24,542 nt of DNA from an uncultured Deinococcales bacterium (GTDB lineage Bacteria; Deinococcota; Deinococci; Deinococcales; JAAFIG01): positions 1 through 24,542 of the forward strand of contig CAXTTL010000031.1 in assembly GCA_964247135.1 (NCBI GenBank), in the 5' to 3' direction. Of this stretch, positions 1,089-24,542 are shown piece by piece (the first letter of the stretch is position 1; the number at the start of each line of letters is the position of its first letter). Both the position numbers and the translations under genes were made by a program. The notes under the pieces were generated by a model that saw only the letters and a program-made list of their open reading frames with translations, made no database searches and was not told the origin of the DNA.

Positions 1089-1124
1089 CTCGAGCCTCAG
1101 AAATTTCTGAGGCTCGAGTTTTTT
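1089..1124 (+). terminator. Rho-independent terminator
   Basis: Perfect 30-bp palindrome CTCGAGCCTCAGAAA/TTTCTGAGGCTCGAG (1089-1118) followed by T6, just after the stop at 1060. Confidence 0.85.
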
Positions 1125-1159
1125 ATTGCTTGCGGTATCATGCGTTATCGGAGGTGCTT

Positions 1160-1713
1160 ATGACTTGGCAAGAGGTGCTCGAGCGTAAAGAATTGCAGGA
1201 TTTGCCATTTAAGATCGAACTCAACGAAAAGGGAAAGGTCGAAAAGAGTCCAGCGACGAATATACACGGCTACTTACAAAGTGAAATTGCTGGATTGTTA
1301 CGTGATTTTTTGAAACGAAAAGGTCAAGTGGCGACAGAATGTAGTGTTCTCACAAGTGAAGGCGTCAAAGTTGCGGATGTGGCTTGGACCTCCAAAGAAT
1401 TTCGGGAAGAGTTTGGAAGTGTCACCCCGTTTCCGTATGCGCCAGAAATTTGTGTCGAAATCATCAGCCTCTCCAACTGCGCGACCATGCCCGAAGCGAT
1501 TCTGCCCGTCAGGTGCATGTTTAGAATCAAGAAGGTGCGTTTTATGGTCAAGAAACCAAAGAAATTCTCGAGAAAATTGGTTTGTACATTGCGGCTGGCG
1601 CAAGGGAAGTTTGGACTTGCAATCTCGAGGGTGAAATGCGTTTTTATGACGCTGAGGGTGCGGTGTTGCATTCAAGTCGCGTTCCCGAATTTCCAAAAGT
1701 CGTGACTTGGTAG
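1160..1713 (+). pseudogene. Uma2-family (PD-(D/E)xK) endonuclease disrupted by a 74-bp insertion
   Basis: GGAGG RBS then MTWQEV...LPFKIELN...H...VKVADVAW...APEICVEIISLSNC. The C-terminal half TKEILEKIGLYIAAGAREVW...PKVVTW* resumes in another frame at 1555. Removing 1481-1554 restores one frame. Confidence 0.85.
1481..1554. mobile_element. Miniature inserted element, long (74-bp) form
   Basis: Starts GCGACCATGC and ends AGGTGCGTTTTATGGTCAAGAA, both identical to the copy at 8906-8941. Frameshifts the Uma2 gene. Confidence 0.75.
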
Positions 1714-1808
1714 GCTCGAGTTACCTAAAACACGATTGAAACCCTGGCTCAGGTGTTAGGCTAAGAACACCATGCGATACATGAACTTCTTTCTGTCAAG
1801 AATTTTTC

Positions 1809-2702
1809 ATGGTGAAGACCGTGTTTAACTTCGTGCGTCGCGCCTGGAATCAGAACATCACGGCGAGTGACCTCGAGCGGGCATTGAATCAACTTGGAAT
1901 CAATCAGCACCGTGATCTGGTGGCGCACTCGAGTTTGTCGGCGTTCGGCTTTGTGCAGGGCGGAGCGCCAACGGTGATTGACGTTTTGCAGCGCAACGCA
2001 CGAACGGTGGTGATGCCTGCGTTCACCTATTACACGCTGGTTTGGCCCGCACACAAGAAATCTGGCGACTGGCCCGCCTTCCCACCTGCCGACGGTCCGA
2101 CCTGGCGTCCAGATTCGCCGGTCAGCCACGACATCGGGCGCATTCCGCAGCAGTACCTCGAGTTCTATCAGGCGGTGCGTTCGCACCATCCGGCTTTAAG
2201 TTTTGCCTCGCTTGGCTTGAACACCAATCAGATTTTATCCTCGCAAACTTTGGAGCGTCCTTATGCACCGATTGGGGTGTTGTACGCGCTCGATGCGGAC
2301 ATTGTGCTTTTGGGGGTCGATCACCGCTCCAACACCACGATTCATTACGGCGAGTATTTGGCGGGTCGTCCGATGCTCGAGCGTTACGCCTATTTTCGAG
2401 GGGCGCTGGCGCGAACATTTTTCCCAAATTGCAGCGCGGCGTTTAACGCCATTCAGGGACATTTAAGCTCGCTTGAGGTGGTGGGTGTTGGTAAAACCCA
2501 GGTTCAGCGCATGAGTGTGCGCGATGTGGTGGACACCACCGTTAAGATGCTGGCGCGTGACCCCGAGGCGATGCTGTGCAGTTACAACGGTTGCCGTTGC
2601 CAGCATGTGCGTGACAAAATTCGTAAAAGTGGCGTGCGCTCAACCCAAGACTCTTTGCTCGAGCAAGCCCATGCGCTCAGTGGACTGCGTCGCTCGAGCT
2701 GA
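1809..2702 (+). CDS. AAC(3)/YokD-family N-acetyltransferase
   Basis: Motifs LVAHSSLSAFG, VVMPAFT, RSHHPALSF, LLGVDHRSNTTIHYGE of the Antibiotic_NAT family. True start may be GTG 1821 (GGTGA upstream). Confidence 0.85.
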   Translation: MVKTVFNFVRRAWNQNITASDLERALNQLGINQHRDLVAHSSLSAFGFVQGGAPTVIDVLQRNARTVVMPAFTYYTLVWPAHKKSGDWPAFPPADGPTWRPDSPVSHDIGRIPQQYLEFYQAVRSHHPALSFASLGLNTNQILSSQTLERPYAPIGVLYALDADIVLLGVDHRSNTTIHYGEYLAGRPMLERYAYFRGALARTFFPNCSAAFNAIQGHLSSLEVVGVGKTQVQRMSVRDVVDTTVKMLARDPEAMLCSYNGCRCQHVRDKIRKSGVRSTQDSLLEQAHALSGLRRSS

Positions 2703-3723
2703 CGGGCGCGACGGCGGGTTTGGTGCCTGGGGCTTCTTTGGCTTCGCTCGAGTGTCCTGGTTCAAATTTGAGGTCTGGATTGGCGATCACGGCGGCTTGA
2801 TTGGCGGCGATGGCGGCTTCCCCGTAACCGGTGGCAATCAGTTTGAGTTTGCCTGGAAACACGCAAATGTCGCCGCAGGCAAACACGCCTTTGATGTTGG
2901 TTTCCATCATATTGTTGACTTTGATGCGGTTGCCTTCAAGCTCGAGTCCCCAATCGGCAATCGGTCCGAGTTTTGACAAATAACCGACCATCGAGACGAT
3001 TTCGTCTATTTCCAGGGTTTGCTCAGCTTTGCTGCTCGAGTGGTAAATCACCACCCGTTCGACGTGGTTGGTACCTTCGACCCGAGCGACCTCAAACGGT
3101 GTAAAAATCTGAACTTCACCGCGTTCTGAGGCGGCAATCATTTGGTTGGTGGTGGCGGCGTGCGCCCTGAAGCTGTCGCGGCGGTGAATCAGGCTGACGC
3201 TTTTTGCCACGTCTTTGAGCATCAACACCCAGTCCACGGCGCTGTCGCCGCCGCCGACGACCAAGACGCGCTTATTTCGGTAAAACTCTAGGTTTTTGAC
3301 GGCGTAGGCGATGCCTTTGTTTTCAAATTCGGTCACGCCAGGGGCGACCAGTTTTCGCGGCTCGAATGCGCCGACGCCGCCAGCGATGATGATTGAGCTG
3401 GCTTCAAAACGCACACCCTTGTCGGTGGTGAGCGCAAATCCAGATTCGATCTGCTCAAGTTTGTCGGCGCGTGCCCCAAGGCTGTAGACGGGATGAAACG
3501 GCTCGAGTTGCTGCACCTGGTTGGTGACCAGTTCTTTGGCGCGAATCTTGGGATAGCCCGCCACGTCGTAAATGTATTTTTCGGGATACAGTGCCGTCAG
3601 TTGACCGCCTGGTTCGGGCAGCGCATCGAGCAGACGCATCGATAAGTCTCGCATTCCAACGTAAAACGCGGCGAACAAGCCTACGGGACCAGCTCCAACG
3701 ATCAACACGTCTGTCTTGGGCAT
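2677..3723 (-). CDS. Ferredoxin-NADP+ reductase, thioredoxin-reductase-like (YumC type)
   Basis: GAGPVG FAD motif, GGQLTALYPEKYIYDVAG, GGGDSAVDW NADPH motif, HRRDSFRAH, GKLKLIATGYGEA. No CxxC pair. Confidence 0.88.
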   Translation of the reverse strand: MPKTDVLIVGAGPVGLFAAFYVGMRDLSMRLLDALPEPGGQLTALYPEKYIYDVAGYPKIRAKELVTNQVQQLEPFHPVYSLGARADKLEQIESGFALTTDKGVRFEASSIIIAGGVGAFEPRKLVAPGVTEFENKGIAYAVKNLEFYRNKRVLVVGGGDSAVDWVLMLKDVAKSVSLIHRRDSFRAHAATTNQMIAASERGEVQIFTPFEVARVEGTNHVERVVIYHSSSKAEQTLEIDEIVSMVGYLSKLGPIADWGLELEGNRIKVNNMMETNIKGVFACGDICVFPGKLKLIATGYGEAAIAANQAAVIANPDLKFEPGHSSEAKEAPGTKPAVAPVSSSDAVH

Positions 3724-3937
3724 ATCTTAAATTATCACGTTGTCATGTAAACAAGCGTCCCTTTTCACTCGAGCGGTGACAGGGCTGGAACAAAGTGGGT
3801 CCTTGAGTTTAAAGTTCATGATTTCTCACAAGCAAAAATTATAATTCTCCCGTGAAACTCGAGTCTTTTTTGATGATCCAGCGTCGATTCTCGAGCGTTA
3901 CAAATCCCTTTTGTACCGTGAAACCGTGAGGAATTCT

Positions 3938-5653
3938 GTGCTGAAATTGCTCGTTTCAATTGGCTTGGCTGGCGTGTTGTTCGGTGTTCTCATTCCCAAG
4001 ATTCTCGAGCGAGAAACGCCCAATAGTATTTTTCGGGCAACAGGAATTGCTCAAACCCCGCCAGATGCGCCAAAACCCTCGAGCGCCAGCGTTTCGTTTG
4101 GGGCTTCGGGAACTCGGTCTGAGGGTTTGGAGCAGGTCAAACCAGCCACGCTCGAGAATGCCGTGAAAAATGCTCCAACCCTGAAAAAACCTCGAGTTAT
4201 CATTTCCGGCAAACAGGTCACACCCGTTCGTCAATTGCGGGCGCTATGGGTCGATGCCTTTGGACCAGGTTTTAAAACGCCAAAAGAAGTCGATAAACTC
4301 GTGGCTGACGCTCGAGCTTTGCATTTGAACGCGCTGTTCGTTCAAGTCGGACGGCGCATGGATTGTTATTGTAACCTTGCCAGCGTGCCGCGCAGCGCCG
4401 ATCCGAAACTCGCGCCAGGTTTTGATGCGCTCGAGGATGTGATCGCAAAGGCGCACAAGGTTGGCATTCAAGTTCATGCCTGGATGATCACCACGGCGGC
4501 ATTTAACAACACCGAACCGGCGATTGCGCCGAACCACGTCATGAACTTGCACGGTTTAAAAGCCACGGGGCGCGATTACTGGTTGACCACCCGAAAAGAC
4601 GGTGACGCCAGCGCGGGCAAAGATTATGTGCTCGATGTCGGGCATCCCGATGTGGCGGATTATATTGCCGCGATGTACTCGAGCATCGTCGAAAATTATG
4701 ATGTGGACGGGATTCAATTTGATCGCGTGCGTTACCCTGACAACGGTGTGCCGCCCTACGAACCAATTTGGGGGTACAATCCGACGGCGCTCGAGGCGTT
4801 CAAGGCTTTTTCTGGACGAACCGACACGCCCAGAAATACGGACTTGGACTGGGCGCAGTGGCGGCGCAATCAAATCACGAACCTGGTGAAGCGCGTGTAC
4901 TTAAGCGTCAAAGCGATCCGACCGAGCGTTTGGGTTTCGGCGGCGACCATCACCTATAAAGAAGCCCCAAACACGCTCGAGGAATTTGAAAAAACCCGAA
5001 CCTATGCCGAGGTTTTGCAAGATTGGGCGTCTTGGATGCAGTCAGGAATCTTGGATTTGAACATTCCCATGAATTACAAACGCGAGAGCATCAAAGAACA
5101 GGTGGCATGGTTTGACGGTTGGAACCGCTTTGCGGTGCAAACCAAAGCGGGTGGCACCGTGGCGACGGGTACGGCAATTTACATCAACTCGCAAACGCAA
5201 AGCTTGAATCAATTAAAGCGCTCACTGCAATTGCCTGGGATTTCGGGTTGGGTCGGGTATTCGTACCGCACGCCAGACCAGGCGACCTTTGATGGTCGTA
5301 AAACTGGCGCAAAGGCGCTCGAGGAACTACAGGCAAAACTGACCGCCAGGTCGGGCGCATTTGCCCTCAATTCGTCTTGGGGAACCGCACCTGTGGGCAA
5401 CTTGGCGGGAGTGATTGGACGCGTCACCCAAAACGGTCTTGGGCTTGCCAACCAAACCGTGACGCTCGAGGACGCGGCAGGGCATCAAACTGAGTTGGTG
5501 ACCGATTCGGGCGGCTATTACGGCGTCCCAAACCTGAAAACCATTGGACTCGCGCTCGGGGTGCTGAAACTCAAAACCGCAGATGTCGAGGCGCAGCTCG
5601 AGGTGAAACCTGAAATGGTGGCAATTGCCCCCGAACTTCAATTGCCGCAATAA
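3938..5653 (+). CDS. Glycoside hydrolase-like family 10 (GHL10/DUF187, DigH/YddW-like) with N-terminal membrane anchor
   Basis: LRALWV, NALFVQV, GIQVHAW, YDVDGIQFDRVRYP, WAQWRRNQIT, QDWASW, IPMNY. GTG start after GAGGA (track start 3911). Confidence 0.85.
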   Translation: MLKLLVSIGLAGVLFGVLIPKILERETPNSIFRATGIAQTPPDAPKPSSASVSFGASGTRSEGLEQVKPATLENAVKNAPTLKKPRVIISGKQVTPVRQLRALWVDAFGPGFKTPKEVDKLVADARALHLNALFVQVGRRMDCYCNLASVPRSADPKLAPGFDALEDVIAKAHKVGIQVHAWMITTAAFNNTEPAIAPNHVMNLHGLKATGRDYWLTTRKDGDASAGKDYVLDVGHPDVADYIAAMYSSIVENYDVDGIQFDRVRYPDNGVPPYEPIWGYNPTALEAFKAFSGRTDTPRNTDLDWAQWRRNQITNLVKRVYLSVKAIRPSVWVSAATITYKEAPNTLEEFEKTRTYAEVLQDWASWMQSGILDLNIPMNYKRESIKEQVAWFDGWNRFAVQTKAGGTVATGTAIYINSQTQSLNQLKRSLQLPGISGWVGYSYRTPDQATFDGRKTGAKALEELQAKLTARSGAFALNSSWGTAPVGNLAGVIGRVTQNGLGLANQTVTLEDAAGHQTELVTDSGGYYGVPNLKTIGLALGVLKLKTADVEAQLEVKPEMVAIAPELQLPQ

Positions 5654-5660
5654 ATTCGCG

Positions 5661-5709
5661 CTATCATTGATGTCAGTCAGACAATCTATCATGGTGTCAG
5701 TCAGACAAT
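5661..5709. repeat. Tandem 25/24-bp direct repeat, candidate operator pair
   Basis: CTATCATTGATGTCAGTCAGACAAT followed by CTATCATGGTGTCAGTCAGACAAT; each contains the dyad TGTC-N5-GACA. Confidence 0.8.
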
Positions 5710-5767
5710 TCTTTGGCGTTGCGCTTTGCAGCCTGCATTGATCATTTTGCAAGTTGGCTTACAAAAT

Positions 5768-9537: not shown

Positions 9538-10332
9538 GTGGTTTTCTTGCGTGATGAACGTTTTTTACCGAATTTAACCTGGCATGAAATCCGTGACCTC
9601 GAGAAAAACCAGGGTGTCTTGGTTTTGCCGATTGGGGCGATTGAACAACACGGTCCGCAACTGCCGACGATTACCGATGCGCTGATTGCCGAGCGCATGA
9701 CAATGCTGGCACTCGAGCGCTTAAAGCCCGAGACTCGAGTTTGGCGGCTGCCGACCCAAAGTTATGGCAAGTCCAACGAACACGCCGGTTATCCTGGCAC
9801 GTTTGCGCTATCGGCTAGCACGCTCATGGCAGTCGTGCGCGACATTGCGCTTGGCGCAAAATTGGCTGGTTTCAGGCGTTTGGCTTTTATCAATGCCCAC
9901 GGCGGAAACACCGCATTGCTGGCGATGATGGCTAGGGACATTCGGGTTGAAACCGGTTTGCTGGTCTTCACGCTGTTCTCGAGCGCGGGAGCGCAAGACC
10001 CAATTGAAATTACGCCCGAAGAGGCGAAATTCGGGATTCACGCCGGCGATTGGGAGACCAGCATTGTGTTGGCACTCGAGCCAGAGTTGGTGCACATGGA
10101 CCGCGCGGTGAAAAGCTTTCCCGATTACCCAACCTCGAGCAACCTCAGTTTGACTGGGGGAAATGCGGTCAGCGCGTGGCTCACGAGGGATTGGAGTCCG
10201 ACGGGAGTTTTTGGGGATTCGACCGTGGCTACTGTTGAAAAAGGCAAGTTGAGACTCGAGGCTTGCGTGGTGAAACTCGCGGAGGTGCTGACCGAAATCA
10301 GTAGGTTTGAAATTCCAGAGGCGAATCAGTAA
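9538..10332 (+). CDS. Creatininase-family amidohydrolase
   Basis: LPIGAIEQHGPQLP..TD, YGKSNEHAGYPGT, INAHGGN, HAGDWETS, GVFGD. Confidence 0.92.
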   Translation: MVFLRDERFLPNLTWHEIRDLEKNQGVLVLPIGAIEQHGPQLPTITDALIAERMTMLALERLKPETRVWRLPTQSYGKSNEHAGYPGTFALSASTLMAVVRDIALGAKLAGFRRLAFINAHGGNTALLAMMARDIRVETGLLVFTLFSSAGAQDPIEITPEEAKFGIHAGDWETSIVLALEPELVHMDRAVKSFPDYPTSSNLSLTGGNAVSAWLTRDWSPTGVFGDSTVATVEKGKLRLEACVVKLAEVLTEISRFEIPEANQ

Positions 10333-11513
10333 TGTTTGACCTCCTTTTAAAAAATGCGAACCTCGAGCAAGGCGTGATGGACGTGGGAATTGGTGACGGA
10401 AAAATCTCGAGCATTGCGCCAAACCTCGAGTTTCATGCCGCAAAAACCATTGACCTCGAGCGGCGATTGTTGCTGCCAGGACTCATCGAAACGCATTGTC
10501 ATATCGACAAAACCCTGACCGCCAAGCTGGTCGGGAATTCTGCTGGCACGTTGCTCGGGGCAATCGAGAATTGGATCGCCTTCAAACCTCAAATCAGCAA
10601 AAACGACTACCTCGAGCGCGGAAAAAAAGCGCTAACGATGGCGATTTCGCAGGGCACCACGACTTTAAGAACCCATGTTGACGTGGATTCAAACGGGTTT
10701 TTGGCGCTCGAGGCGGTACTCGAGTTAAAAGAATTGTTTGCCGACAAAATCACAATCCAAATCGTGGCGTTGGGCAGCCCTGAACTCGAGGTTGAAACCA
10801 TGCGCGAGGCGATGCGCCTTGGCGCTGACGTGGTTGGTGGCTGTCCCGCGATTCGGCAAGACCCAAAACTCGAGGTGGAGAATGCGCTGAAAATTGCGGC
10901 GGAATTTGGTAAACCGCTTGATTTGCACGTGGACGAGAATGATTTCAGCAACTCGCTCGAGTTTCTGGCGGATGAAGTCATCAGGCTCAAATTTGGCTTG
11001 CCTGTGATGGCTGGACATTGTTGCAGTTTGGATTTTATGTTGGAGCACGACGCGGCTCGAGTGATCGAAAAAGTGGCGAAGGCGGGAATCAGCATTGTGT
11101 CTTTGCCCGCCTGTAACCTCAATTTGCAGGGGCGCGGTCAACATCCTGTACCGCGCGGGGTGACTCGAGTCGCAGAGTTGCTTGTCGCTGGCGTGAACGT
11201 CTGTGTGGGGTCGGACAACGTGCAAGACCCTTTTCATCCAATCGGAAATTACAATTTACTCGGTGCCGCGAACCTGGCGACGATGGCGTGTCATTTAACG
11301 ACCGACACACAAATTCAGCAAACCTTTGAAATGATCTCGAGCAATGCCGCAAGGGCGTTAATCTTGCCCAAACCAGAAATCAAAGTTGGTGCGAACGCCG
11401 ATCTGATCGTGCTCGAGGCGGAATCTGCCAAGCAAGCGGTCTGCGAAATTGCGCCGTGTTATTTGACCATAAAAGCTGGAAACGTGCTCGAGAGGCGTTC
11501 ATGGACATCGTGA
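10332..11513 (+). CDS. Amidohydrolase, cytosine/pterin deaminase (CodA-like)
   Basis: HCHIDKT, LRTHVDV, DLHVDE, AGHCCSL, GSDNVQDPFHPIG: complete CodA-type metal-ligand set. Confidence 0.88.
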   Translation: MFDLLLKNANLEQGVMDVGIGDGKISSIAPNLEFHAAKTIDLERRLLLPGLIETHCHIDKTLTAKLVGNSAGTLLGAIENWIAFKPQISKNDYLERGKKALTMAISQGTTTLRTHVDVDSNGFLALEAVLELKELFADKITIQIVALGSPELEVETMREAMRLGADVVGGCPAIRQDPKLEVENALKIAAEFGKPLDLHVDENDFSNSLEFLADEVIRLKFGLPVMAGHCCSLDFMLEHDAARVIEKVAKAGISIVSLPACNLNLQGRGQHPVPRGVTRVAELLVAGVNVCVGSDNVQDPFHPIGNYNLLGAANLATMACHLTTDTQIQQTFEMISSNAARALILPKPEIKVGANADLIVLEAESAKQAVCEIAPCYLTIKAGNVLERRSWTS

Positions 11514-12763
11514 TTCGTGGTGCCAGGTTGCAAGATGGAACCATCACAGATATTGGAATAGAGGACGGTTTGATCACCCAGCTTCAACCTGAAATCGCTG
11601 GCACAGCAAAACTCGAGTTTGATGCGACCAATCAATTGGCGATTCCTGCGTTTGTGAATGGGCATCTTCACGCCTGCAAAAGTTTTTGGCGCGAGCCACT
11701 GGCAAAGCTCGAGCTAGGACAGAATTTTGATTTTACAAACATGGCTGCGAGATTTGGCGCGATCAGCGAAATCAAACGCCACTACACGCCCGAAGAGGTC
11801 GCCGCTCGAGCCGAGAAAAGCATTCTTATGGCTTTGCGTCACGGCACTTGCGCGATTCGCTTGTTTGCAGACGTGGACAGCGACGCTGGACTTCGGGCGC
11901 TCGAGGGCTTGATCAAAGTTCGAGAACAATTTCGTGAAATTTTAACCGTTCAGGTCGTGGCATTTCCGCAAAATGGGGTGTTTCGCGCTCGAGCCAGCAC
12001 CGAAAGTCTGTTGCATCAGGCGCTCGAGTTGAACATTGATGCAATTGGCGGCATTCCTTGGCTCGAGCCGAGCGAGGAATCGCAAAAAGCACACGTCGAT
12101 CTGATTCTCGAGTTGGCAAAAAAACATAATCGAGACGCGCATTTTGTGCTCGATGACACCGAAGACCCGACCTCCAGAAGCACTGAATATGTGGCGGCAA
12201 GAACCATCGAACTGGGTTTACAAACTCGAGTTCATGGCACGCAGGCAAACGCGCTGGCATATTACGATGACGGTCATGCGGCTCGGGTGATTCGACTGTT
12301 GAAGGAAGCTAAAATGACGATTTTCTCGAACGCGCATGTGGCGCTGGTAACGACCAATGTGCGCCATCAGCCAGCACCGAGGGGCATGACTCGAGTTCGT
12401 GAGCTTTTGGCGGCTGGTGTCCCCGTTGCCACCGCTCAGGACGACATTGACAACCCGTACTATCCGTTCGGGCGCAACGATTTGCTCGAGGTGGCGCAGT
12501 ACATGGCGCATTTGGGGCAATTTGCTTGGGGTGATGAAATTGACACTGTTCTCGAGATGGTCACGAGTGTTCCAGCCAAGGTCATGAAACTCGAGCATTA
12601 CGGTTTGGCGGTTGGTTGCAAAGCCAGTGTACAGATTTTGAACGCCACAAATTGGCGCGATGCAGTGCATTATCAAGCCGAGAAATCATTCGTGATCGTG
12701 AACGGTAAACTGGTTTCTCGAGCCTTGAGACAGCAAGAATTTTTTGGATTGGGGAAGTCATGA
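11501..12763 (+). CDS. Second CodA-like amidohydrolase with degenerate active site
   Basis: HLHACKS, QVVAFPQNG, GGIP, AQDDIDNPYYPFGRND. ATG 11501 with GAGAGG RBS overlaps the upstream stop. Confidence 0.85.
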   Translation: MDIVIRGARLQDGTITDIGIEDGLITQLQPEIAGTAKLEFDATNQLAIPAFVNGHLHACKSFWREPLAKLELGQNFDFTNMAARFGAISEIKRHYTPEEVAARAEKSILMALRHGTCAIRLFADVDSDAGLRALEGLIKVREQFREILTVQVVAFPQNGVFRARASTESLLHQALELNIDAIGGIPWLEPSEESQKAHVDLILELAKKHNRDAHFVLDDTEDPTSRSTEYVAARTIELGLQTRVHGTQANALAYYDDGHAARVIRLLKEAKMTIFSNAHVALVTTNVRHQPAPRGMTRVRELLAAGVPVATAQDDIDNPYYPFGRNDLLEVAQYMAHLGQFAWGDEIDTVLEMVTSVPAKVMKLEHYGLAVGCKASVQILNATNWRDAVHYQAEKSFVIVNGKLVSRALRQQEFFGLGKS

Positions 12764-14169
12764 ATCAACGCATCTTAACCAAACTCGAGCAGATTGTTGG
12801 CGCGAATCAAACCTTTACCGATGCTCGAATTTTAGAAACGTTTTCCAAAGACCAGTACGCGTTTTCGCCCGTGCTGCTCGAGTTGTTGCGCGACAAACGC
12901 GCCGAAGTGATGGTTGCGCCAGACTCGAGCGAACAACTGAGCGCAATTGTTTCGCTCTGCGCACTCGAGAATATTCCATTGACGGTTCGCGGCGCGGGCA
13001 GCGGCAATTATGGGCAAGCCGTGCCACTTCAAGGCGGCATTCTGGTCAGTTTGCACCGCTTCAATCAAATCCTCGAGATTGATCCAACAGCGCAAACCGC
13101 CCGAGTTCAAGCTGGGGCACGGCTCGGCAACCTCGAGCGTGAAGCCAGAAAACACGGGCTGGAGTTGCGGTTTTACCCGAGCACCTGGGCGACCGCTACG
13201 GTTGGCGGTTTCGTCGGCGGCGGCTTTGGCGGCGTGGGTTCGATTCAGTACGGCACGCTTTGGGATGGTCTGATCCTGGAAACACAAGTTTTATCGATGA
13301 CCGAAAACCCAAAGCTCGAGCGGTTGACTGGCAGCGATATTTTTGCCGTGATTCACGCCTACGGCACCACCGCGATCATGACCGAATTGACCATTCGACT
13401 TGCGCCCGCGACCAACTGGGAGGAAAGCGTTTTCTCGTTTGAGAGCCTCGAGAATGCGATTGCGTTTGCCCAAGAAATTGCCCAAGATTCGAAGCTCAAA
13501 AAGCGAGAAATTGGAATCTTTGAAGCCCCAATGTCAACTTTTTTCAAACCGCTCGAGGCGGCTGGCGGCGTGCGTGAGGGCAGAACCGCCGTGATTTTGG
13601 AACTCGAGGAACACACAAGCCCCACGCTCGAAACTCGAGCCAAAGAACTGGCTGGAACGCTCGATTACTTCAACCCGCACGCCACGTACCACCACTCGGG
13701 TTTTGCGCTTTCGGATTTTACCTGGAATAACACCACACTCTGGGCGATGAAAGCCGACAGCACTTGGACGTACACCCAAGCCAGGTTTGAGGTGGACAGG
13801 TTGCCCGAGCAAGTTCGCGCCATCAAAACCGAATTTGGCAGCGAAGTGTTGATGCACCTCGAGTTTATTCGTGAACGCATTTCTGAGGGCGGCGTGCTGG
13901 TCGCGGCAAGTTTGCCGCTCATTCGGTTTACGACCGTCGAGCGACTGTTTGAAATCCAAGCTTTTCTTGAAACCATCGGCGTCCAAGTCGCAGACCCACA
14001 CACCTTTTACTTGGATGAAGACTCGAGGTGGTCTGGTGAAGCCGTATTAAATGGCGTCACTCGGTTCAACCCCAAAGGCTTGCTGAACCCTGGCAAGTTG
14101 AAAGTGCTCGAGACTGGCGAAAACACGGTGCTCGCCAATTCTTGGTTTGGCACCACAAAAACTGTTTAA
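12760..14169 (+). CDS. FAD-binding oxidoreductase (VAO/PCMH, GlcD-like)
   Basis: RGAGSGNYGQAVP, ATVGGFVGGG, HAYGTTAIMTE, C-terminal NPKGLLNPGK. ATGA overlap with the previous gene. Confidence 0.9.
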   Translation: MNQRILTKLEQIVGANQTFTDARILETFSKDQYAFSPVLLELLRDKRAEVMVAPDSSEQLSAIVSLCALENIPLTVRGAGSGNYGQAVPLQGGILVSLHRFNQILEIDPTAQTARVQAGARLGNLEREARKHGLELRFYPSTWATATVGGFVGGGFGGVGSIQYGTLWDGLILETQVLSMTENPKLERLTGSDIFAVIHAYGTTAIMTELTIRLAPATNWEESVFSFESLENAIAFAQEIAQDSKLKKREIGIFEAPMSTFFKPLEAAGGVREGRTAVILELEEHTSPTLETRAKELAGTLDYFNPHATYHHSGFALSDFTWNNTTLWAMKADSTWTYTQARFEVDRLPEQVRAIKTEFGSEVLMHLEFIRERISEGGVLVAASLPLIRFTTVERLFEIQAFLETIGVQVADPHTFYLDEDSRWSGEAVLNGVTRFNPKGLLNPGKLKVLETGENTVLANSWFGTTKTV

Positions 14170-15058: not shown

Positions 15059-16075
15059 TTAAATTTGGGTTTGCCATGCAATATCGTTGAATTCACGCCG
15101 CAATTCGAGAATGCCAGTTTGAACCCCTCGAGATGGGTTGACGCGGTTCGTTAAAAGCACGTGAATTTGCTGGGTTTTTGGGTCAAACCAAGCGCCAGTT
15201 CCGGTAAAACCCGTGTGACCGAGCGACGTGTACGGTCCAGCATCGCCACCGCTCCAAAGCTGATGCCGCATCACCCAGCCAAAGGCTCGAGCATCACTTT
15301 CTGATCGGGCAATTTCTGTTGCCATCAACTCGAGCATCTGTGTTCCAATGACGCGTCCCTCGAGCAAATATGCCAGGTACAAACCAACGTCTCGAGCCGT
15401 GCCAAACAAACCAGCATGACCCGAAACACCCTCGAGTGCGGACGTGTTCTCGTCATGAACTGATCCAACGATCAAACCGCCGCGTTCAGGTACAAATTCC
15501 GTCGGCGCACAGTTGGCAATTTCTGGGTGATACGTTAATTTTAAGCCGAGCGGTGCGAACAATTCGTTTCGGGCGACAATGTCCAACCTCGCGCCGTACA
15601 GTTGCTCGAGAAGGTAGGTCAGCGCTATAAAACCTTGATCAGAATACAAAATCTCTCGAGACTCACGTATAGGTTCGGTCAAGGCTTTCTCGAGCGCTGC
15701 CTGACGTGGCAAATTCCAAAAACGCAATCTCGAGAGCGCCTCTAAACCCGAAGTGTGCGAAACCAACTCGAGGATATTGCTGTTTTCGAGCGGAAAGCCT
15801 TTGACCTCGGGCAGCATCTCCAACAAGGGCGCAGCGGGATCAAGTCTCCCCCGTTCGATCAATTTTAAAAGCAGTGGCACGGTCACCAGCACTTTGGTCA
15901 AACTCGCCAGGTCATAAACAGTCTCGAGCGTCACCTCTTTTGAATCTGTTTGGCTCGAGAGACGTCCAAAACTGGCGAACTCGAGGTTTGAACCAAATCC
16001 CAAAGCAGCACTTGCTCCAGGAATTGGACCAGCCTTGATGGCATTCTTTACAAGCTCAAACGCAGGGTTCATCAT
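15059..16075 (-). CDS. Serine hydrolase, beta-lactamase/esterase family
   Basis: SxxK (DLASLTK), HTSGL, YSDQG, GSVHDEN, GHAGLF, GHTGFTGT, LLTNR. Confidence 0.9.
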   Translation of the reverse strand: MMNPAFELVKNAIKAGPIPGASAALGFGSNLEFASFGRLSSQTDSKEVTLETVYDLASLTKVLVTVPLLLKLIERGRLDPAAPLLEMLPEVKGFPLENSNILELVSHTSGLEALSRLRFWNLPRQAALEKALTEPIRESREILYSDQGFIALTYLLEQLYGARLDIVARNELFAPLGLKLTYHPEIANCAPTEFVPERGGLIVGSVHDENTSALEGVSGHAGLFGTARDVGLYLAYLLEGRVIGTQMLELMATEIARSESDARAFGWVMRHQLWSGGDAGPYTSLGHTGFTGTGAWFDPKTQQIHVLLTNRVNPSRGVQTGILELRREFNDIAWQTQI

Positions 16076-16163
16076 CTCGAGCCTACCGCAAACCAGCACA
16101 ACACGGTATAGTTCTGTGCTCAACTATTCACCCGAGAGACACTTGGGTTTTGGAGGAAAACAC

Positions 16164-16507: not shown

Positions 16508-16528
16508 GTCGCTCGAGATTCGAGCAAC

Positions 16529-19240: not shown

Positions 19241-19263
19241 AAAAATGCCACTCGGGTTTAAAA

Positions 19264-21003
19264 CTAAATTTTAAGCTGCATGTTGTAATAATTGGCGTAA
19301 ACGCCACCGAGGGCTACCAAGTCCTGATGCGTGCCCTGTTCTGCAATTCCCTGATCGCCCAGCACCACGATTCGCTGGGCATTTTTGATGGTCGAAAGTC
19401 GGTGCGCAATCACGATGGTCGTGCGGTTGTCAATCAGTTTCTCGAGCGAATCCTGAACCTCCCGTTCGCTCTCGTTGTCCAGAGAACTGGTGGCTTCGTC
19501 AAAAATAATGATCGCCGGATTTTTCAGAAAAACCCGAGCGATGCTTAAGCGCTGTTTTTGCCCGCCCGAGAGTTTGACGCCGCGCTGCCCAATGTCGGTG
19601 TCGTAGCCATCCGACAGCGCCATGATGAAATCGTGCGCATTGGCTTTTTTGGCGGCATCCACAATTTCAGAAAAACCCGCCTCGAGTTTACCGTAAGCGA
19701 TGTTATCGGCAACCGTTCCAGCGAACAGGTAAACGTCTTGTTGCACAATGCCGATGTTTTTTCTGAGCGATTCAAGACCAATGTCTTTGAGGTTTTTGCC
19801 ATCGAGCAAAATCTGCCCTTCGGTCACATCGTAAAAGCGTGGAATCAGCGAACAAAGCGTGGTTTTTCCAACGCCCGACGCGCCAACCAGCGCAATAAAT
19901 TCGCCAGCTCTAATCTCGAGCGAAATGTTTTTCAGCACCTCATCATGGTTTTCGGTGTATTTAAAACTGACATCCTGAAATTTCAGATGTCCCTGAACCC
20001 GCCCTAAGTCGGTCGCAGTCGGCGAATCCTCAATGTCGGGTCGAATCTCGAGCATCTCCATAAAACGGTTAAAACCCGTAATGCCCTCCTGATAAAGCCG
20101 TCCCAGATTGCTCGCGCCCCGAATTGGTTCGAGCAAAATACCGAGATACAACAGGTAGGTCAGCAAGTCGACCAAATCCAAGTGATGACCGACAATACTG
20201 GCACCGCCAACCACCAGCAAAACAATGGTCAAAAACTGCGTGAAAAACAACATTCCACTGGTGAAAAACATATAACTTTTGTACTCGACCTTTCGACCCT
20301 CGAGAAAACGATTGTTCTGGGTGGCAAATTTTTTGGCTTCGAGTTTTTCGTTGGTAAAAGATTTTACGACACGAATCCCTGCCAGCGAATCCTCGAGCTG
20401 TGCGTTGACATCACCGATTCGGTCCCGACTGGTTCTGACCGCCAGGTTCATTTGCTTGTTAAAGTACAAAGCGTAAACCGTCATGATCGGTAAGAACGCA
20501 AAGATGACAAGGGTGAGCGGCACATTGATGGTGATTAAAATGGCAAATGCGCCGATCAATTTCAACAGCGAGATCACCACATCCTCTGGACCGTGATGAA
20601 ACAATTCACTCATGGCAAACGTGTCGTTGGTGATGCGGTTCATCAGTTGAGCCGTCAAATGATTGTCAAAAAAACCGAAAGACAGTTTTTGATAATGCTC
20701 AAATAGCTCGGCACGCATGTCGCGTTCCATCAACGCGCCCATCATGTGACCCTGATAGTCAACAAACACATTGCAGAGCGTTTGAAGCACCACCAAGACC
20801 AGCATCAAAGCGCCCGTAAAATAAATTTGCCCCAGCATTTGAGATGAATTTCCAGCCAAAATGTCTTTGGTGATGTACCTGGCAAACAGTGGCAATACCA
20901 GCGCCACGGCAGCCACGACAAAAGCACAAATGAGGTCGGCAACGAGTAAACGCGTGTAGGATTTGTAATAGGAAAAAAACTTTTTGCTTCGGGCGTTCAA
21001 CAT
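19264..21003 (-). CDS. Fused ABC exporter (TMD+NBD; MsbA/Sav1866/YwjA-like)
   Basis: N-terminal TM domain, GASGVGKT, LSGGQKQR, IFDEATSSLD, IAHRLST. ATG 21003 preceded by GGGGGA. Confidence 0.92.
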   Translation of the reverse strand: MLNARSKKFFSYYKSYTRLLVADLICAFVVAAVALVLPLFARYITKDILAGNSSQMLGQIYFTGALMLVLVVLQTLCNVFVDYQGHMMGALMERDMRAELFEHYQKLSFGFFDNHLTAQLMNRITNDTFAMSELFHHGPEDVVISLLKLIGAFAILITINVPLTLVIFAFLPIMTVYALYFNKQMNLAVRTSRDRIGDVNAQLEDSLAGIRVVKSFTNEKLEAKKFATQNNRFLEGRKVEYKSYMFFTSGMLFFTQFLTIVLLVVGGASIVGHHLDLVDLLTYLLYLGILLEPIRGASNLGRLYQEGITGFNRFMEMLEIRPDIEDSPTATDLGRVQGHLKFQDVSFKYTENHDEVLKNISLEIRAGEFIALVGASGVGKTTLCSLIPRFYDVTEGQILLDGKNLKDIGLESLRKNIGIVQQDVYLFAGTVADNIAYGKLEAGFSEIVDAAKKANAHDFIMALSDGYDTDIGQRGVKLSGGQKQRLSIARVFLKNPAIIIFDEATSSLDNESEREVQDSLEKLIDNRTTIVIAHRLSTIKNAQRIVVLGDQGIAEQGTHQDLVALGGVYANYYNMQLKI

Positions 21004-21036
21004 TATTCCCCCAACGGTTCGGAGGAACAAAAACGC

Positions 21037-21117
21037 TTACCCTCCAAACCCTGGTCTGAATTTCAGACCTCGAGCTGCGATTGTGAGTTGTAAACAAAAT
21101 GTTGAACGGCTTCTCAC
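21037..21117 (-). CDS. Putative leader peptide MRSRSTFCLQLTIAARGLKFRPGFGG
   Basis: Strong SD AAAGGAGGTG (21131-21122), AGGAGG 6 nt before GTG; stop 33 nt upstream of the exporter start. Confidence 0.65.
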   Translation of the reverse strand: MRSRSTFCLQLTIAARGLKFRPGFGG

Positions 21118-21160
21118 GTCGCACCTCCTTTCAAGGTTTGGACCGGCTGAATTGATTGTT

Positions 21161-21190
21161 AGTTTATCACTTTCACCGAAGTTGTTGCAA
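21161..21190 (-). promoter_or_regulatory. Putative promoter for leader peptide and ABC exporter
   Basis: TTGCAA-18 nt-TAAACT with extended TGn. Confidence 0.45.
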
Positions 21191-21270
21191 AATCACAAGT
21201 CAACGAGACACCCATAAAAGTATGTTGACCCTCGAGACACCAAAATGATGCTTTCAAAAACTTCAAAACC

Positions 21271-21329
21271 GTAGGGTGCGCCGTGCGCACCGTGAGCCAT
21301 GTGGTCATGGTGCGCACGGCGCACCCTAC
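21271..21329. repeat. REP doublet (REPIN-like, GTAG family)
   Basis: GTAGGGTGCGCCGTGCGCACC, 17-nt spacer, then its exact reverse complement GGTGCGCACGGCGCACCCTAC; each unit is itself palindromic after GTAG. Confidence 0.85.
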
Positions 21330-21422
21330 CAATGTCTTTTTTTAAGAAAAATCCTTTATAAACCGAGGTCAACACGCTTTTAACCCTGTCTCCAATTTCA
21401 GCCACGACGGACTCAAGGACCT

Positions 21423-22871
21423 TTAAGACTCGAGCTTCCACCGTGTGTCGTCCACCGTATCCTCGAGTTGCACGCCCAAAGACTTGAGGCGTTCACGCAG
21501 GGCGTCGGAGCTTTTGAAATCACGGTTTAAACGGTAACTTTTGCGGGCTTCAATCGCAATCTCGAGCAAACCCTCGAGCAGACCTTCCTTGCCTTGGGTC
21601 GCATCGCTGGTGTCGGCTGGAAACAACCCAAAGACAAAACCTGCGAGCTTATCAAAAGTTTCCAATCCCAACTCGAGCGATTGTTTGTTGTTGGTGATTA
21701 CAGATGCGTTAAATTCTTTGGTCATGGAAAACAATGCCGCCAGCGCCTCTGGCGTGTTGAAATCGTCGTCCATCGCGGTTTCAAATTGAACCCGAGCCGC
21801 ATCAATTTTTTTCTCGAAACCCGCATCGTGCCCAGTCGTCGCCAGCTCGAGTTTGCGCACCAGTTCGCGGCGCGTTTCCCTGAACCTCGAGAGAACGCTG
21901 GTCGCGGCGGTGATGGTGTCTGAAGATAGTTCTGCCACGCTGCGGTAATGGCTCTGAATGTAAATCAAACGCAGCACCATCGGGTCGTGGGTGGCGTAAA
22001 AATCTTGCAGGGTCGTGAAATTTCCTTTGGACTTGCTCATCTTTTCGCCGTTGATGGTCAGCATGTTGCCGTGCATCCAGTAACGCGCGAACTTATAGCC
22101 CGCGCCCTCGGCTTGGGCAATTTCGGCTTCGTGATGCGGAAATTGCAAATCCAGACCGCCGGCGTGGATGTCAAAATTTTCGCCCAAGTATTTGATTGCC
22201 ATCGCCGAGCATTCGATGTGCCAACCAGGAAAACCCTCTCCCCAAGGCGATTTCCAGCGCATTAAATGTTCTGGTTCGGCAAATTTCCAGAGGGCAAAAT
22301 CCAGTGGGTCTTCCTTGTCCTCGCGCACGTCCTCACGCGTGCCAACCTCGAGTTCATCGATCTTGCGTCCCGAAAGTTTCCCATAATCTGGGTCGGATCG
22401 CACCCGAAAGTAGACGCTGCCATCTCGCTCGTAGGCTTTGCCCCTGGCAATTAAAGTTTGTACCATTTCAATCTGCTCGAGGATATGCCCCGTCGCCCTT
22501 GGCGCAATGTTGGGTTTTTGCACGTTCAGTTGTTCCATGTCATGAAAGTAATTCCACATGTACTTCTCGGCGACCTCCATCGGCTCGAGTTGCTCGAGTT
22601 TGGCGCGTTCACCGATACGGTCATGCCCCTCGTCGCTGGTTTCGTCGGTAATGTGACCAACGTCGGTGATGTTACTCACGAACCTGACTTTAAAATTTCG
22701 GTAAGCGAACCAACGGCGGATCACGTCGAATGCCACGGCGGTTTTGCCGTGTCCAAGGTGTGCGTCGGAGTACACGGTGGGTCCGCACAAATACATGCCA
22801 ACGCGCCCGGCGGTGGTCGGCACAAAATCCTCTTTTTGCTTGCTCAAAGTGTTAAACAACCTAATGGTCAT
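21423..22871 (-). CDS. cysS: Cysteine--tRNA ligase
   Basis: [54 protein letters not shown]. Confidence 0.97.
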
Positions 22872-22887
22872 GGAAAATCCTTTCAAT

Positions 22888-22914
22888 AAAAAAGCTCGAG
22901 GTTAAGTCTCGAGC
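22888..22914 (-). terminator. Attenuator terminator in the cysS leader
   Basis: Minus strand GCTCGAG-ACTTAAC-CTCGAGC-TTTTTT, ending 16 nt before the cysS ATG. Confidence 0.75.
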
Positions 22915-22949
22915 ATCATTTCGGGTCGGGGAATGGACTCAAAACCGCT

Positions 22950-22997
22950 CTAGGGGCGGTCACAACAAGAATGCAGGGTTACTCGAGGGTCTGACAT
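22950..22997 (-). CDS. cysS leader peptide MSDPRVTLHSCCDRP
   Basis: 15-aa uORF with tandem TGT TGT codons, 9 nt after TATAAT (23012-23007), upstream of terminator and cysS. Confidence 0.75.
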   Translation of the reverse strand: MSDPRVTLHSCCDRP

Positions 22998-23196
22998 CTT
23001 GAGCAAATTATACACTCGAGTTTGCACGGTTTGGTAATCCACACTTCACGGGAGTAGACTCGAGGCAACATGAACGCGCCAAACTGGCAACAAGATGCCA
23101 TCCCACCACCGCTCTCGTAACGCTCGAGAGACATTAAATTATCGCCATTCTTTTGAAGTTCGAGCATCCAAACAACTGCTCGAGAAGAGGTTTTTT

Positions 23197-24542
23197 ATGG
23201 GTCAAATACAACTGAAAACCGCGCTGCCAGGACCAAATTCATTGGCGTTGCAAGCCAGACGTGCCGCCGCCGTCTCGAGCGCCTTGGGTCAAGCCAACCC
23301 CGTCGCCATCAAACGCGCCAAGGGTTCGATGCTCGAGGATGTTGACGGTAACATGCTGGTTGATCTGGCGGGCGGCATCGGCGTGCTGGCGGTGGGTCAC
23401 GGACCCGAAAACGTCAAAGCTGCGCTTCACAAACAGGTTGACGAGTACTTGCACATTTGCAGCATCGTGGCAAATTACGAACCATACGTTGAACTGTGCG
23501 AGAAATTGAACAGTTTGACCCCAGGCAATTTTGCCAAGAAAACCTTGCTTTCAAACGGCGGCGCGGAAGCCGTCGAAAATGCCGTCAAATTTGCGCGGCG
23601 TTTTACGGGTCGGGCGGGCATCATCGTCTTTGAGGGTGCGTACCACGGGCGCAGCAACCTGACGATGGCGATGACCAGCAAGTACAGCCTGTTCAAAAAA
23701 GGTTTCGGACCCTTCGCCCCAGAAGTCTACCGCCTGCCCATGCCAAACCTTTACCGCACCCCAAAAGGCATGAGTCAGGAAGATTACCTCGAGTGGAGTT
23801 GCTGGAATCTCGAGAATGCCTTGGTCGCCCACATTGACGGTTCGGCGCTGGCTGCCATCGTGATCGAACCCATCGTCGGCGAGGGCGGCTTCATTCCCGT
23901 GCCGAAAAAGTTCCTCGAGAAAATCCGTGAAATCTGCGACAAAACGGGTGCGGTGATGATCGCCGACGAGATTCAATCGGGTTCTGGACGCACGGGCAAA
24001 ATGTATGCGATTGAACACACGGGCGTCGTGCCGGACATGGTCATCAGCGCCAAATCGCTCGGGGCGGGACTGCCAATTTCTGCGGTCACCGGACGTGCCG
24101 AAATCCTCGATTCGCCACATGTTGGCGGCGCGGGCAGCACTTACGGCGGCAACCCGCTCGCCTGCGTTGCCGCGCTCGAGGCAATCAAAATCCTCACCAG
24201 CCAAGAAGCCATCGACGGCGCCGCCAGAATTGAACGCATCGTGCGCGAAGTCTTTGAACCCATGCAACTCGAGATACCAATTCTTGGCGACGTGCGCGGC
24301 GTTGGTGGCATGATGTGCCTCGAGTTTGTTCACGATCAGGTACAAAAAGAACCCTGGATGGAAATCGTGCCGCAAATCGTCAAAGGCTGCCTCGAGGGCG
24401 GCGTGATCTTGCTCCGCGCTGGTTTGTACACCAACTGCATCAGGTTCCTGCCCGAACTCACCATCGACGAGGCATTGTTCCGTGAAGCGCTCGAGGTTGT
24501 GGCTGGCGCGGTTCGTCAGGTTTACAAAGCGAATCAAGCGGT
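23197..24542 (+). CDS. gabT: Class III PLP aminotransferase, 4-aminobutyrate--2-oxoglutarate transaminase-like (3'-truncated)
   Basis: Translated by hand: MGQIQLKTALPGP...DVDGN..VDLAGGIGVLAVGH...NGGAEAVENAVK...YHGR...IEPIVGEGG...IADEIQSGSGRTG...AKSLGAGLP. No stop in the window, hence absent from the ORF track. Confidence 0.9.
   Translation, partial: MGQIQLKTALPGPNSLALQARRAAAVSSALGQANPVAIKRAKGSMLEDVDGNMLVDLAGGIGVLAVGHGPENVKAALHKQVDEYLHICSIVANYEPYVELCEKLNSLTPGNFAKKTLLSNGGAEAVENAVKFARRFTGRAGIIVFEGAYHGRSNLTMAMTSKYSLFKKGFGPFAPEVYRLPMPNLYRTPKGMSQEDYLEWSCWNLENALVAHIDGSALAAIVIEPIVGEGGFIPVPKKFLEKIREICDKTGAVMIADEIQSGSGRTGKMYAIEHTGVVPDMVISAKSLGAGLPISAVTGRAEILDSPHVGGAGSTYGGNPLACVAALEAIKILTSQEAIDGAARIERIVREVFEPMQLEIPILGDVRGVGGMMCLEFVHDQVQKEPWMEIVPQIVKGCLEGGVILLRAGLYTNCIRFLPELTIDEALFREALEVVAGAVRQVYKANQA

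Follow-up and report, generated by a model that had tools for sequence, protein, structure and literature searches.

CTCGAG, a highly iterated palindrome in a family of Deinococcales

CTCGAG in the window and in the genome

The window analyzed here, a stretch of 24,542 bases from an uncultured member of the Deinococcales, carries 171 copies of the hexamer CTCGAG (6.97 per kb), the first at positions 1089-1094 and the last at 24490-24495. An earlier note on this DNA had put the number at about 170 over 1089..24495, and the exact count bears this out, with the same end coordinates. Here we show that CTCGAG is, almost certainly, a clade-wide highly iterated palindrome (HIP) subject to a fixation bias that operates on the DNA and coincides exactly with the hexamer. 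The window contains the following features, with open reading frames denoted ORFs and Pfam families given where matched:

1089..24495, both strands: dispersed CTCGAG copies, 171 in number, located in genes in three codon phases and between genes
1..1088, no strand: motif-free stretch with 0 CTCGAG, the sole long stretch of this kind in the window; GC content 46% over bases 1-2000
2-1060, plus strand: ORF of 352 amino acids (aa) without a Pfam match, inside the motif-free stretch 1..1088
1067..1705, plus strand: Uma2 family gene (PF05685, putative restriction endonuclease fold) with 5 sites, one of 24 copies in the genome
1809-2702, plus strand: gene of the aminoglycoside 3-N-acetyltransferase family (PF02522), rich in CTCGAG
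10332..14169, plus strand: three consecutive genes, encoding two amidohydrolases plus an FAD-binding oxidase and carrying 15, 14 and 14 sites (9.9-12.7 per kb)
15059..16123, minus strand: beta-lactamase family (PF00144) gene with 15 sites, the highest density in the window (14.1 per kb)
21423..22886, minus strand: cysteinyl-tRNA synthetase (CysRS; Pfam tRNA-synt_1e, E 1.5e-105) with 11 CTCGAG and 11 Leu-Glu

In 100 dinucleotide-preserving shuffles of the window, CTCGAG occurred 4.6 times on average (standard deviation 2.27, maximum 11), and none of the shuffles reached 171. The window encompasses 19 large ORFs, 17 of which have Pfam support. As described in the earlier note, the sites occupy all three codon phases, genes on both strands and intergenic DNA. 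In-frame CTC-GAG, encoding Leu-Glu, accounts for 100 of the 171 sites (65 in plus-strand genes and 35 in minus-strand genes), whereas 23 sites start at codon position 2 (xCT-CGA-Gxx) and 28 at codon position 3 (xxC-TCG-AGx); 20 sites lie outside the 19 large ORFs, in 2,733 bases, which corresponds to 7.3 per kb. The genes at 1809-2702 (plus strand) and 15059-16123 (minus strand) are rich in CTCGAG and thus appear to be long-resident rather than recently acquired, and the motif-free stretch 1..1088 was probably acquired more recently than the remaining DNA of the window.

The assembly of the genome to which the window belongs (5,091,702 bases in 386 contigs, of which the window is C31 and the longest has 115 kb; 84% complete) contains 33,925 copies of CTCGAG, that is, 6.66 per kb or about one per 150 bases. 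CTCGAG is the top-ranked hexamer by count, and the hexamers next in count overlap it. The most frequent hexamers without such an overlap are GGTTTT (6,081 copies) and AAAACC (5,877 copies). The observed-over-expected ratio (O/E) for CTCGAG is 24.8, 35.2 and 14.4 under Markov models of order 0, 1 and 2, respectively; the ratios at orders 3 and 4 (3.4 and 1.2) do not come from a valid null because models of these orders absorb the motif's own pentamers. On a background with the motif masked, 564-586 copies are expected, so that the excess is about 59-fold, in agreement with the description of the motif in the earlier note as a highly iterated palindrome similar to HIP1. Across the 386 contigs, the minimum density is 2.56 per kb and the median is 6.8 (5th-95th percentile, 4.5-8.9). 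The one-base neighbors of CTCGAG are not depleted, with O/E values of 0.8-3.3 on the masked background. The bases flanking the motif show only a weak preference, as 38-39% of the sites are preceded by G (position -1) and followed by C (position +1), and genome-wide flank counts revealed no conserved extension beyond the six bases.

Motif-free gaps of at least 1,200 bases are rare: only 47 occur genome-wide, with a total length of 72.5 kb, and most of these have a GC content of 27-45%. The gaps hold genes for a reverse transcriptase-protease fusion, AbiEii-like and AAA ATPases, an O-antigen ligase and a strain-specific methyltransferase, along with several ORFs without a Pfam match; some solute-binding protein genes of ordinary GC content are found in such gaps as well. 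Among the gaps are low-GC islands:

C4:51606-53234, C20:8448-9575, C70:14265-16157 and C13:11893-14536 (contig:positions): motif-free islands of low GC content (27-35%) with defence-like genes
Gene content of these C4, C20, C70 and C13 islands: reverse transcriptase fused to a trypsin-like protease, AbiEii-like AAA_21 ATPase, AAA_16 ATPase and two ORFs without a Pfam match

Thus, foreign DNA in this genome is devoid of CTCGAG.

Conservation, coding context and spacing of the sites

The turnover of the sites was assessed by comparison with a congener, G045, from which 350 kb were taken; 248 kb of these align to the genome, with 85.1% identity. Counted in both directions, 2,792 of the 3,442 CTCGAG sites (81.1%) are intact in the other species, compared with a mean of 44.4% for all hexamers (median 44.8%, 95th percentile 57.9%), which ranks CTCGAG first in conservation among the 1,979 hexamers with at least 100 occurrences. 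This conservation extends to synonymous positions. Inside the motif, third codon positions are kept in 93% (CTC before GAG), 93% (GAG after CTC), 95% (TCG) and 90% (CGA) of the cases, whereas the third positions of the same codons elsewhere are kept in 63% (CTC), 72% (GAG), 70% (TCG) and 64% (CGA). Among the intergenic copies, 150 of 207 (72%) are intact, against 41% for all intergenic hexamers. The rate of loss of CTCGAG is about four times lower than that of ordinary hexamers, and the one-base neighbors CTTGAG, CTCAAG and CTGGAG are kept in only 9-18% of the cases between the two species.

In the flanks of conserved sites, starting with the base next to the motif, mismatches occur at a rate of 0.14-0.16, with an overall rate of 0.149; because the flanks diverge at the background rate right up to the edge, the constraint ends exactly at the motif. 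Within the motif, all six positions are protected alike. The single-base differences in CTCGAG, 357 altogether and mostly transitions, include 104, 98 and 80 transitions at the position pairs 1/6, 2/5 and 3/4, respectively, an even spread, and no deamination hotspot or excess of C-to-T changes at either cytosine was seen among them. An alignment of 5.6 kb from five species (84-87% pairwise identity) contains 49 site columns, of which 21 are common to the five species, 14 to four, and nine are private to one. Several of the private sites arose stepwise, for example, CTCAAA to CTCGAA to CTCGAG. The mixture of shared and private columns implies that sites are both lost and newly made in each lineage. 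We conclude that the CTCGAG sites are maintained by a bias acting on exactly these six base pairs.

Gene calls for the whole genome were crude longest-ORF calls, which yielded 4,545 ORFs and 86% of the genome as coding. The coding DNA contains 28,676 CTCGAG copies (6.56 per kb), with 17,451 in the Leu-Glu phase (CTC-GAG) and 4,586 and 6,639 in the other two phases, and the DNA outside the ORFs contains 5,290 copies at 7.50 per kb, a density at least as high as that in coding DNA. Shuffling of synonymous codons within genes, which keeps the protein and the codon usage of each gene, a usage already inflated by the motif, gave 4,078 expected copies (standard deviation 43, five runs), a 7-fold excess of the observed number. 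With shuffled codon order, 1,665 coding copies are expected. The intergenic segments, taken alone, hold 5,231 copies, against an expectation of 141 (order 1) or 392 (order 2). Codon or dipeptide preference is therefore insufficient to account for the motif, as the earlier note had argued, and the excess does not vanish when the amino acid sequence is controlled for. The abundance of CTCGAG is a property of the DNA itself and not of codons.

The bias leaves a clear imprint on the proteome. Leu-Glu, with 22,724 occurrences, has the highest O/E among the dipeptides (2.40), and 77% of the occurrences are spelled CTCGAG, whereas the O/E of Glu-Leu is 1.02 and the spelling GAGCTC is never used. The corresponding Leu-Glu ratio in loci from other phyla is 1.01. 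In CysRS, the mean number of Leu-Glu is 9.9 in 16 orthologs from the family versus 4.2 in 20 outgroup orthologs, and the mean number of Glu-Leu is 2.7 and 3.0, respectively. The excess of Leu-Glu in the proteome amounts to about 13,000 dipeptides, and the CTCGAG bias is strong enough to have added this number. The proposal that the motif shapes protein sequences is thus borne out.

The gaps between successive sites (33,539 gaps with a mean of 148 nucleotides and a coefficient of variation of 0.96) deviate from a geometric law in a characteristic manner: gaps shorter than 20 nucleotides are found at 0-0.55 times the expected count, those of 50-200 nucleotides at 1.14-1.33 times and those of 300-1000 nucleotides at 0.74-0.82 times; a slight excess of gaps longer than 1 kb comes from islands. 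Interference between neighboring sites was measured with the protein held fixed, as the fraction of adjacent Leu-Glu pairs in which both dipeptides are spelled CTCGAG; under independence, this fraction equals 0.768 squared, or about 59%. At a distance of 6 nucleotides, where this spelling would create GAGCTC, the fraction is 0%; it rises to 24-34% at 9-15 nucleotides and to 47-57% at 18-42 nucleotides, and reaches about 59% from 45 nucleotides on. Thus, the density of CTCGAG saturates, and sites less than about 45 nucleotides apart suppress each other. Three accounts are compatible with the interference: returns that diminish as sites accumulate in a stretch of DNA, a bound protein that sterically excludes others nearby, or a tendency to avoid hairpins with a 6-bp stem and a short loop. 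No periodicity of 10-11 nucleotides is visible in the histogram of short distances. Site pairs 8 nucleotides apart number 11, compared with 87 at 7 nucleotides, 115 at 9 and 50 at 10.

Distribution among relatives and the search for a cognate enzyme

Because rRNA was not assembled in this genome, its taxonomy was derived from the relatives of CysRS, the gene at 21423..22886 on the minus strand serving as the marker both for placement of the organism and for the comparison of orthologs. The closest relatives are 16 records of metagenome-assembled genomes (MAGs) from Deinococcales or Deinococcota, with 68-96% identity, and the next ones, from other phyla, do not exceed 49%. The host is accordingly not a cyanobacterium, which confirms that the motif was correctly placed outside that phylum. 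All 16 family loci around CysRS contain 3.9-7.8 CTCGAG per kb and no GAGCTC, compared with 0-0.56 CTCGAG per kb in all 64 CysRS loci from other phyla.

The count was extended to 61 genomes of the order. Each of the 13 family genomes sampled contains 12,028-33,925 copies (4.3-6.8 per kb), whereas the 48 genomes from four sister families contain 128-10,639 copies (0.03-2.9 per kb), so that the density of CTCGAG spans more than 100-fold within one bacterial order. The signal was seen in 19 family genomes, including one that consists of a single contig (G030), and in 16 separately accessioned records. The enrichment is genome-wide (386 of the 386 contigs) and clade-wide (13 of the 13 genomes), and hence is not confined to the contig of the window. 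In samples of 20-80 kb from each of four sister-family genomes, with crude ORF calls, CTCGAG is present at 2-3 per kb, which is 2.0-2.9 times the count in the synonymous shuffle, and the O/E of Leu-Glu is 1.4-1.7; tentatively, a weaker form of the bias may operate in the sister families. The 12 genomes of sister family f3, all from one genus (G002, G007, G012 and others), contain 128-942 copies in 3.5-4.8 Mb (0.03-0.27 per kb). In this family, CTCGAG is strongly avoided, the opposite of the pattern in the family of the window.

The gene searches covered 19 MAGs of the family that are 57-94% complete. The methyltransferase complement of the window's genome comprises five PF01555 matches, two enzymes of the C5 class and one of the D12 class, two proteins similar to MmeI, one similar to HsdM and one of 1,499 aa. 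Five methyltransferases in the genome adjoin nucleases whose canonical sites, which we take to be GAGCTC, CAGCTG, GGCC, CCGCGG and CGGCCG for the SacI, PvuII, NgoPII, Eco29kI and NotI families, respectively, are palindromes nearly absent from the genome:

SacI-like nuclease (PF09566): E 8e-7, 29.7 bits (cut-off 19.3); GAGCTC, 0 copies
C320:1061-2985, outside the window: SacI-like pair, a D12-class methyltransferase (277 aa) adjacent to a 364-aa PF09566 protein
C36, C14, C178 and C207 (loci L082, L086, L087 and L083): jointly hold the pairs of the PvuII, NgoPII, Eco29kI and NotI families
PvuII nuclease: E 9e-67; CAGCTG, 15 copies
NgoPII nuclease: E 3e-85; GGCC, 380 copies
Eco29kI nuclease: E 8e-68; CCGCGG, 11 copies
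NotI-family nuclease, weak match: E 1e-5; CGGCCG, 3 copies

The SacI-like pair of nuclease and methyltransferase is conserved in at least seven of the 19 family genomes. GAGCTC has 0 copies in 5.09 Mb and the remainder of the GRGCYC set is nearly absent (GGGCCC, 1; GGGCTC, 4; GAGCCC, 6), and a SacI-type system probably explains the absence of GAGCTC. GGATCC (7 copies), GCATGC (17) and CGTACG (5) are nearly absent from the genome as well.

The search for a cognate methyltransferase of CTCGAG, with or without a nuclease, as suggested in the earlier note, found no single enzyme common to the family among PF00145, PF01555 and PF02086 in the 19 MAGs or PF02384 and PF07669 in five genomes. C5 enzymes (PF00145) are absent from G040 and represented by only a fragment in G035, and neither the single-contig genome G030 nor G035 has a PF01555 match. 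D12 enzymes (PF02086) are present in 18 of the 19 genomes but were rejected as the common enzyme because they belong to unrelated groups located next to SacI-, EcoRV-, MutH- or NotI-type nucleases or to ORFs without a Pfam match. In the five genomes, the proteins of PF02384 and PF07669 belong to type I or type IIG systems and are divergent; the PF02384 proteins of 500-540 aa share only 27-41% identity with one another and lie next to HsdS-like ORFs, so that these were assigned to type I systems. Both unpaired methyltransferases of this genome are sporadic across the family. One of these, L081 (258 aa, PF01555), was rejected as the CTCGAG enzyme because it is strain-specific and resides inside a low-GC motif-free island, and the methyltransferase-like protein L085 (466 aa) was rejected because only six of the 61 genomes have a match to it, with none in G030 or G040.

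Nucleases specific to this sequence were not detected either. The XhoI family (PF04555) has no match in the 19 family genomes, nor in the control genomes, so that this search is without a positive control. Vsr (PF03852), detected in three control genomes, was not found in this genome. We infer that CTCGAG is not the target of a restriction system. The Uma2 family (PF05685), with 24 copies here, ranges from 6 to 40 copies per genome within the family and from 29 to 35 in three large sister-family genomes; it has none in the 12 genomes of another sister family and was detected in the Synechococcus elongatus control. As a correlate of motif density, its copy number is imperfect: an unenriched genus has 7-19 copies, and a genome with 3 CTCGAG per kb has none.

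With respect to uptake and recombination, ComEC is encoded in 18 of the 19 family genomes, and the genome of the window encodes DprA as well as two HHH_3 proteins resembling ComEA. A search for RecC across the order gave no match in 61 genomes, although the Escherichia coli control was detected. A search for viral contigs with three closely spaced CTCGAG produced, among the matches listed, high-GC contigs that also carry GAGCTC, and none with the signature of the family.

Comparison with known systems and candidate explanations

The closest counterpart of CTCGAG is HIP1 (GCGATCGC) of cyanobacteria, for which Elhai (2015; PMC4390886) gives an abundance of 300-2,700 per Mb. The same source ranks an alternate HIP, GGCGCC of Calothrix PCC 7103, first in over-representation among the 6-mers of 97 cyanobacterial genomes. 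Xu et al. (2018; PMC5861425) report that HIP1 is conserved by selection and that its distribution is periodic at 10-90 kb. More recently, methylated HIP1 has been reported to raise transformation more than 100-fold in Synechococcus PCC 7002, and a Chi-like role was suggested for it in the same work (bioRxiv 10.1101/2024.09.10.611283); furthermore, the abundance of HIP1 is reported to correlate with pilus and competence genes (PMC13756078). The CTCGAG case has the hallmarks by which HIP1 was argued to be under selection (PMC5861425). Like HIP1 and the alternate HIPs, CTCGAG is a short GC-rich palindrome in tens-fold excess, found in coding DNA in all frames and in non-coding DNA, conserved above control oligomers independently of codon use, and common to a whole clade. 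In contrast to HIP1, it comes from another phylum, has another sequence, is a hexamer present at about 6,660 per Mb, and no clade-wide cognate methyltransferase was found for it; its six positions are equally protected, whereas deviations from HIP1 are biased to the outer bases. A full-text search of the literature, with subscription journals and supplements outside its scope, yielded no earlier account of hyper-abundant CTCGAG or of any HIP from Deinococcota. CTCGAG is a real HIP-like element outside cyanobacteria.

Other iterated or biased sequences resemble CTCGAG in part. The DNA uptake sequences (DUS) of Neisseriaceae and the uptake signal sequences (USS) of Pasteurellaceae are non-palindromic, 9-12 nucleotides long and present at about one per kb. 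Like CTCGAG, they are clade-specific, hyper-abundant, evenly spaced and found both in and between genes, and by this likeness CTCGAG could accumulate through uptake-driven molecular drive, with ComEC, DprA and ComEA-like proteins encoded in the genome. CTCGAG is not, however, an asymmetric 9-12-mer at about 1 per kb but a palindromic hexamer at 6.66 per kb without a conserved extension. It has the same sequence as the target of XhoI and PaeR7I, and its precision over 6 bp is of the kind usual for type II enzymes; the targets of restriction-modification systems are nevertheless avoided, and the systems present here match avoided palindromes, whereas CTCGAG is the top hexamer. Very-short-patch repair in E. 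coli skews CCWGG over CTWGG, a small effect in which one position is protected. The resemblance consists in a repair bias that favors the target sequence of a methylase; CTCGAG differs from this skew in its about 59-fold excess, the protection of six positions, the lack of depletion of one-base neighbors and the failure to find Vsr in the genome. Chi is a short over-represented signal of self DNA, 5-8 nucleotides long, that modulates recombination and is asymmetric and orientation-biased. It is far less dense than CTCGAG, and RecC was not found in the 61 genomes searched.

What acts on the motif can be stated only tentatively. We consider it a genuine possibility, although short of probable, that a symmetric, sequence-specific protein reads CTCGAG in duplex DNA and that the closely spaced copies label own or kin DNA during uptake, recombination or repair; this mechanism is suggested by the recent work on HIP1, namely the effect on transformation and the correlation with pilus and competence genes, together with the saturation behavior described above. 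A protein present throughout the lineage would bind the 6-bp palindrome in duplex DNA, in the manner of type II enzymes, and CTCGAG would then label, at high density, the DNA of the cell itself or of its kin. This label would be used during DNA uptake, recombination or repair, the role now proposed for cyanobacterial HIP1, and alleles that bear it would be preferentially fixed, through selection or through molecular drive caused by uptake or conversion. In its fuller form, in which a Deinococcales family evolved its own HIP independently of cyanobacteria, as a methylation-independent tag of self or kin read by a candidate hexamer-specific protein during uptake, recombination or repair, the proposal is possible but somewhat doubtful.

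Several points weigh against these proposals or limit the evidence behind them. No reader protein for CTCGAG was identified in the searched methyltransferase and nuclease families. Known uptake sequences are non-palindromic 9-12-mers at about 1 per kb, whereas a hexamer at about 7 per kb is far above what fragments of kb size need for their uptake. The competence genes do not discriminate, being common in bacteria and detected also in 10-11 of the 14 control genomes. The interference peaks at 9-15 nucleotides, which corresponds to hairpin loops of 3-9 nucleotides, so that hairpin avoidance could take the place of saturation. Part of the DNA scored as intergenic may be coding, given the crude ORF calls, and the comparison with the sister families is based on samples of 20-80 kb. 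In addition, selection, uptake-driven drive and biased gene conversion are inseparable on divergence data alone.

The rival explanations differ in what they assume to read or generate the motif. Under Elhai's model for HIPs, an orphan methyltransferase would mark CTCGAG, and mismatch correction near methylated sites would favor the motif-bearing strand; sites would thereby be generated and preserved, either as a side effect or because they serve as marks for strand discrimination. A density of about one site per 150 nucleotides suits a repair-directing mark, and each genome of the family encodes several DNA methyltransferases. The cyanobacterial alternate HIPs examined are reported to have each come with a cognate methyltransferase, and different enzyme classes could serve in different genera, as reported in the same work for CGATCG in cyanobacteria (PMC4390886); methylases producing 5-methylcytosine in CTCGAG are reported to exist, for example, in Halorubrum (PMC8112702). 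We nonetheless regard this ratchet as unlikely: none of the methyltransferases from the five Pfam families is common to all the family genomes searched for it, Vsr was not found in this genome, and the lack of a C-to-T excess at either cytosine, with 104, 98 and 80 transitions at the three position pairs, argues against 5-methylcytosine. A structural signal, with CTCGAG bound by an abundant nucleoid-associated or bridging protein that packs or organizes the chromosome, would account for a symmetric, homodimer-like motif exact to six base pairs, for the even density over contigs with long gaps below chance, and for the footprint-like exclusion zone up to about 45 nucleotides; a nucleoid role was also proposed for HIP1 from its kb-scale periodicity (PMC5861425). 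Since an exact hexamer is rarely required by nucleoid proteins, the analysis yielded no candidate protein, and the short-distance histogram does not show a 10-11 nucleotide periodicity, we hold this account to be rather improbable. Of the mechanisms listed in the earlier note, roles in uptake, recombination or nucleoid organization may apply, whereas a link to methylation obtained no support in the five-family methyltransferase census and plain mutational bias fits poorly.

Two further explanations carry much less weight. The copies of CUCGAG or CTCGAG, being self-complementary, might act by pairing with one another in single-stranded DNA or RNA, and the interference indeed peaks where a 6-bp stem would have a loop of 3-9 nucleotides. 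However, such a stem is weak, the interference represents avoidance of close pairs rather than their use, the intergenic density is equal or higher, and the conservation of intergenic sites already suggests equal conservation in untranscribed DNA, all of which makes a role in pairing very unlikely. Finally, the motif could have no function and reflect neutral context-dependent mutation bias, codon or dipeptide preference, or an artefact of assembly or binning. Among the 28,676 coding sites, 17,451 are indeed Leu-Glu encoded as CTC-GAG, and high-GC relatives have many CTCGAG, partly through codon usage. Against this stand the 7-fold excess over the synonymous shuffle and the intergenic density of 7.5 per kb, the absence of GAGCTC (Glu-Leu, with the same codons), the conservation of CTCGAG far above that of its flanks and of other hexamers, one-base neighbors that are not depleted (O/E 0.8-3.3), and the presence of the signal in the 19 genomes, the single-contig one included, and the 16 separate records. 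Interference between neighbors is not predicted by site-autonomous mutation, and plain mutational bias fits poorly because the six positions are equally protected, the protection stops at the edge and neighboring sites interfere. The explanation without function is largely refuted, and we assign it a negligible probability.

Work on HIPs has been confined to cyanobacteria and, over three decades, has not settled what they do. CTCGAG constitutes a second, independent case, which allows comparative tests for genes, repair pathways and uptake components that are common to both groups and absent from motif-poor relatives; if the proposal of an independent tag of self or kin is true, this family would provide a second natural system for the 30-year-old HIP problem. 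In practical terms, CTCGAG offers a sharp compositional signature by which these genomes can be binned and foreign DNA in them recognized, and the avoided palindromes predict restriction barriers to the genetic handling of these organisms. For the biology of the group, the same hexamer ranges from strongly avoided to the top word within one bacterial order, and a signal at the level of DNA can bend the proteome, with Leu-Glu as the top dipeptide and the essential CysRS carrying about twice the Leu-Glu of its orthologs elsewhere.

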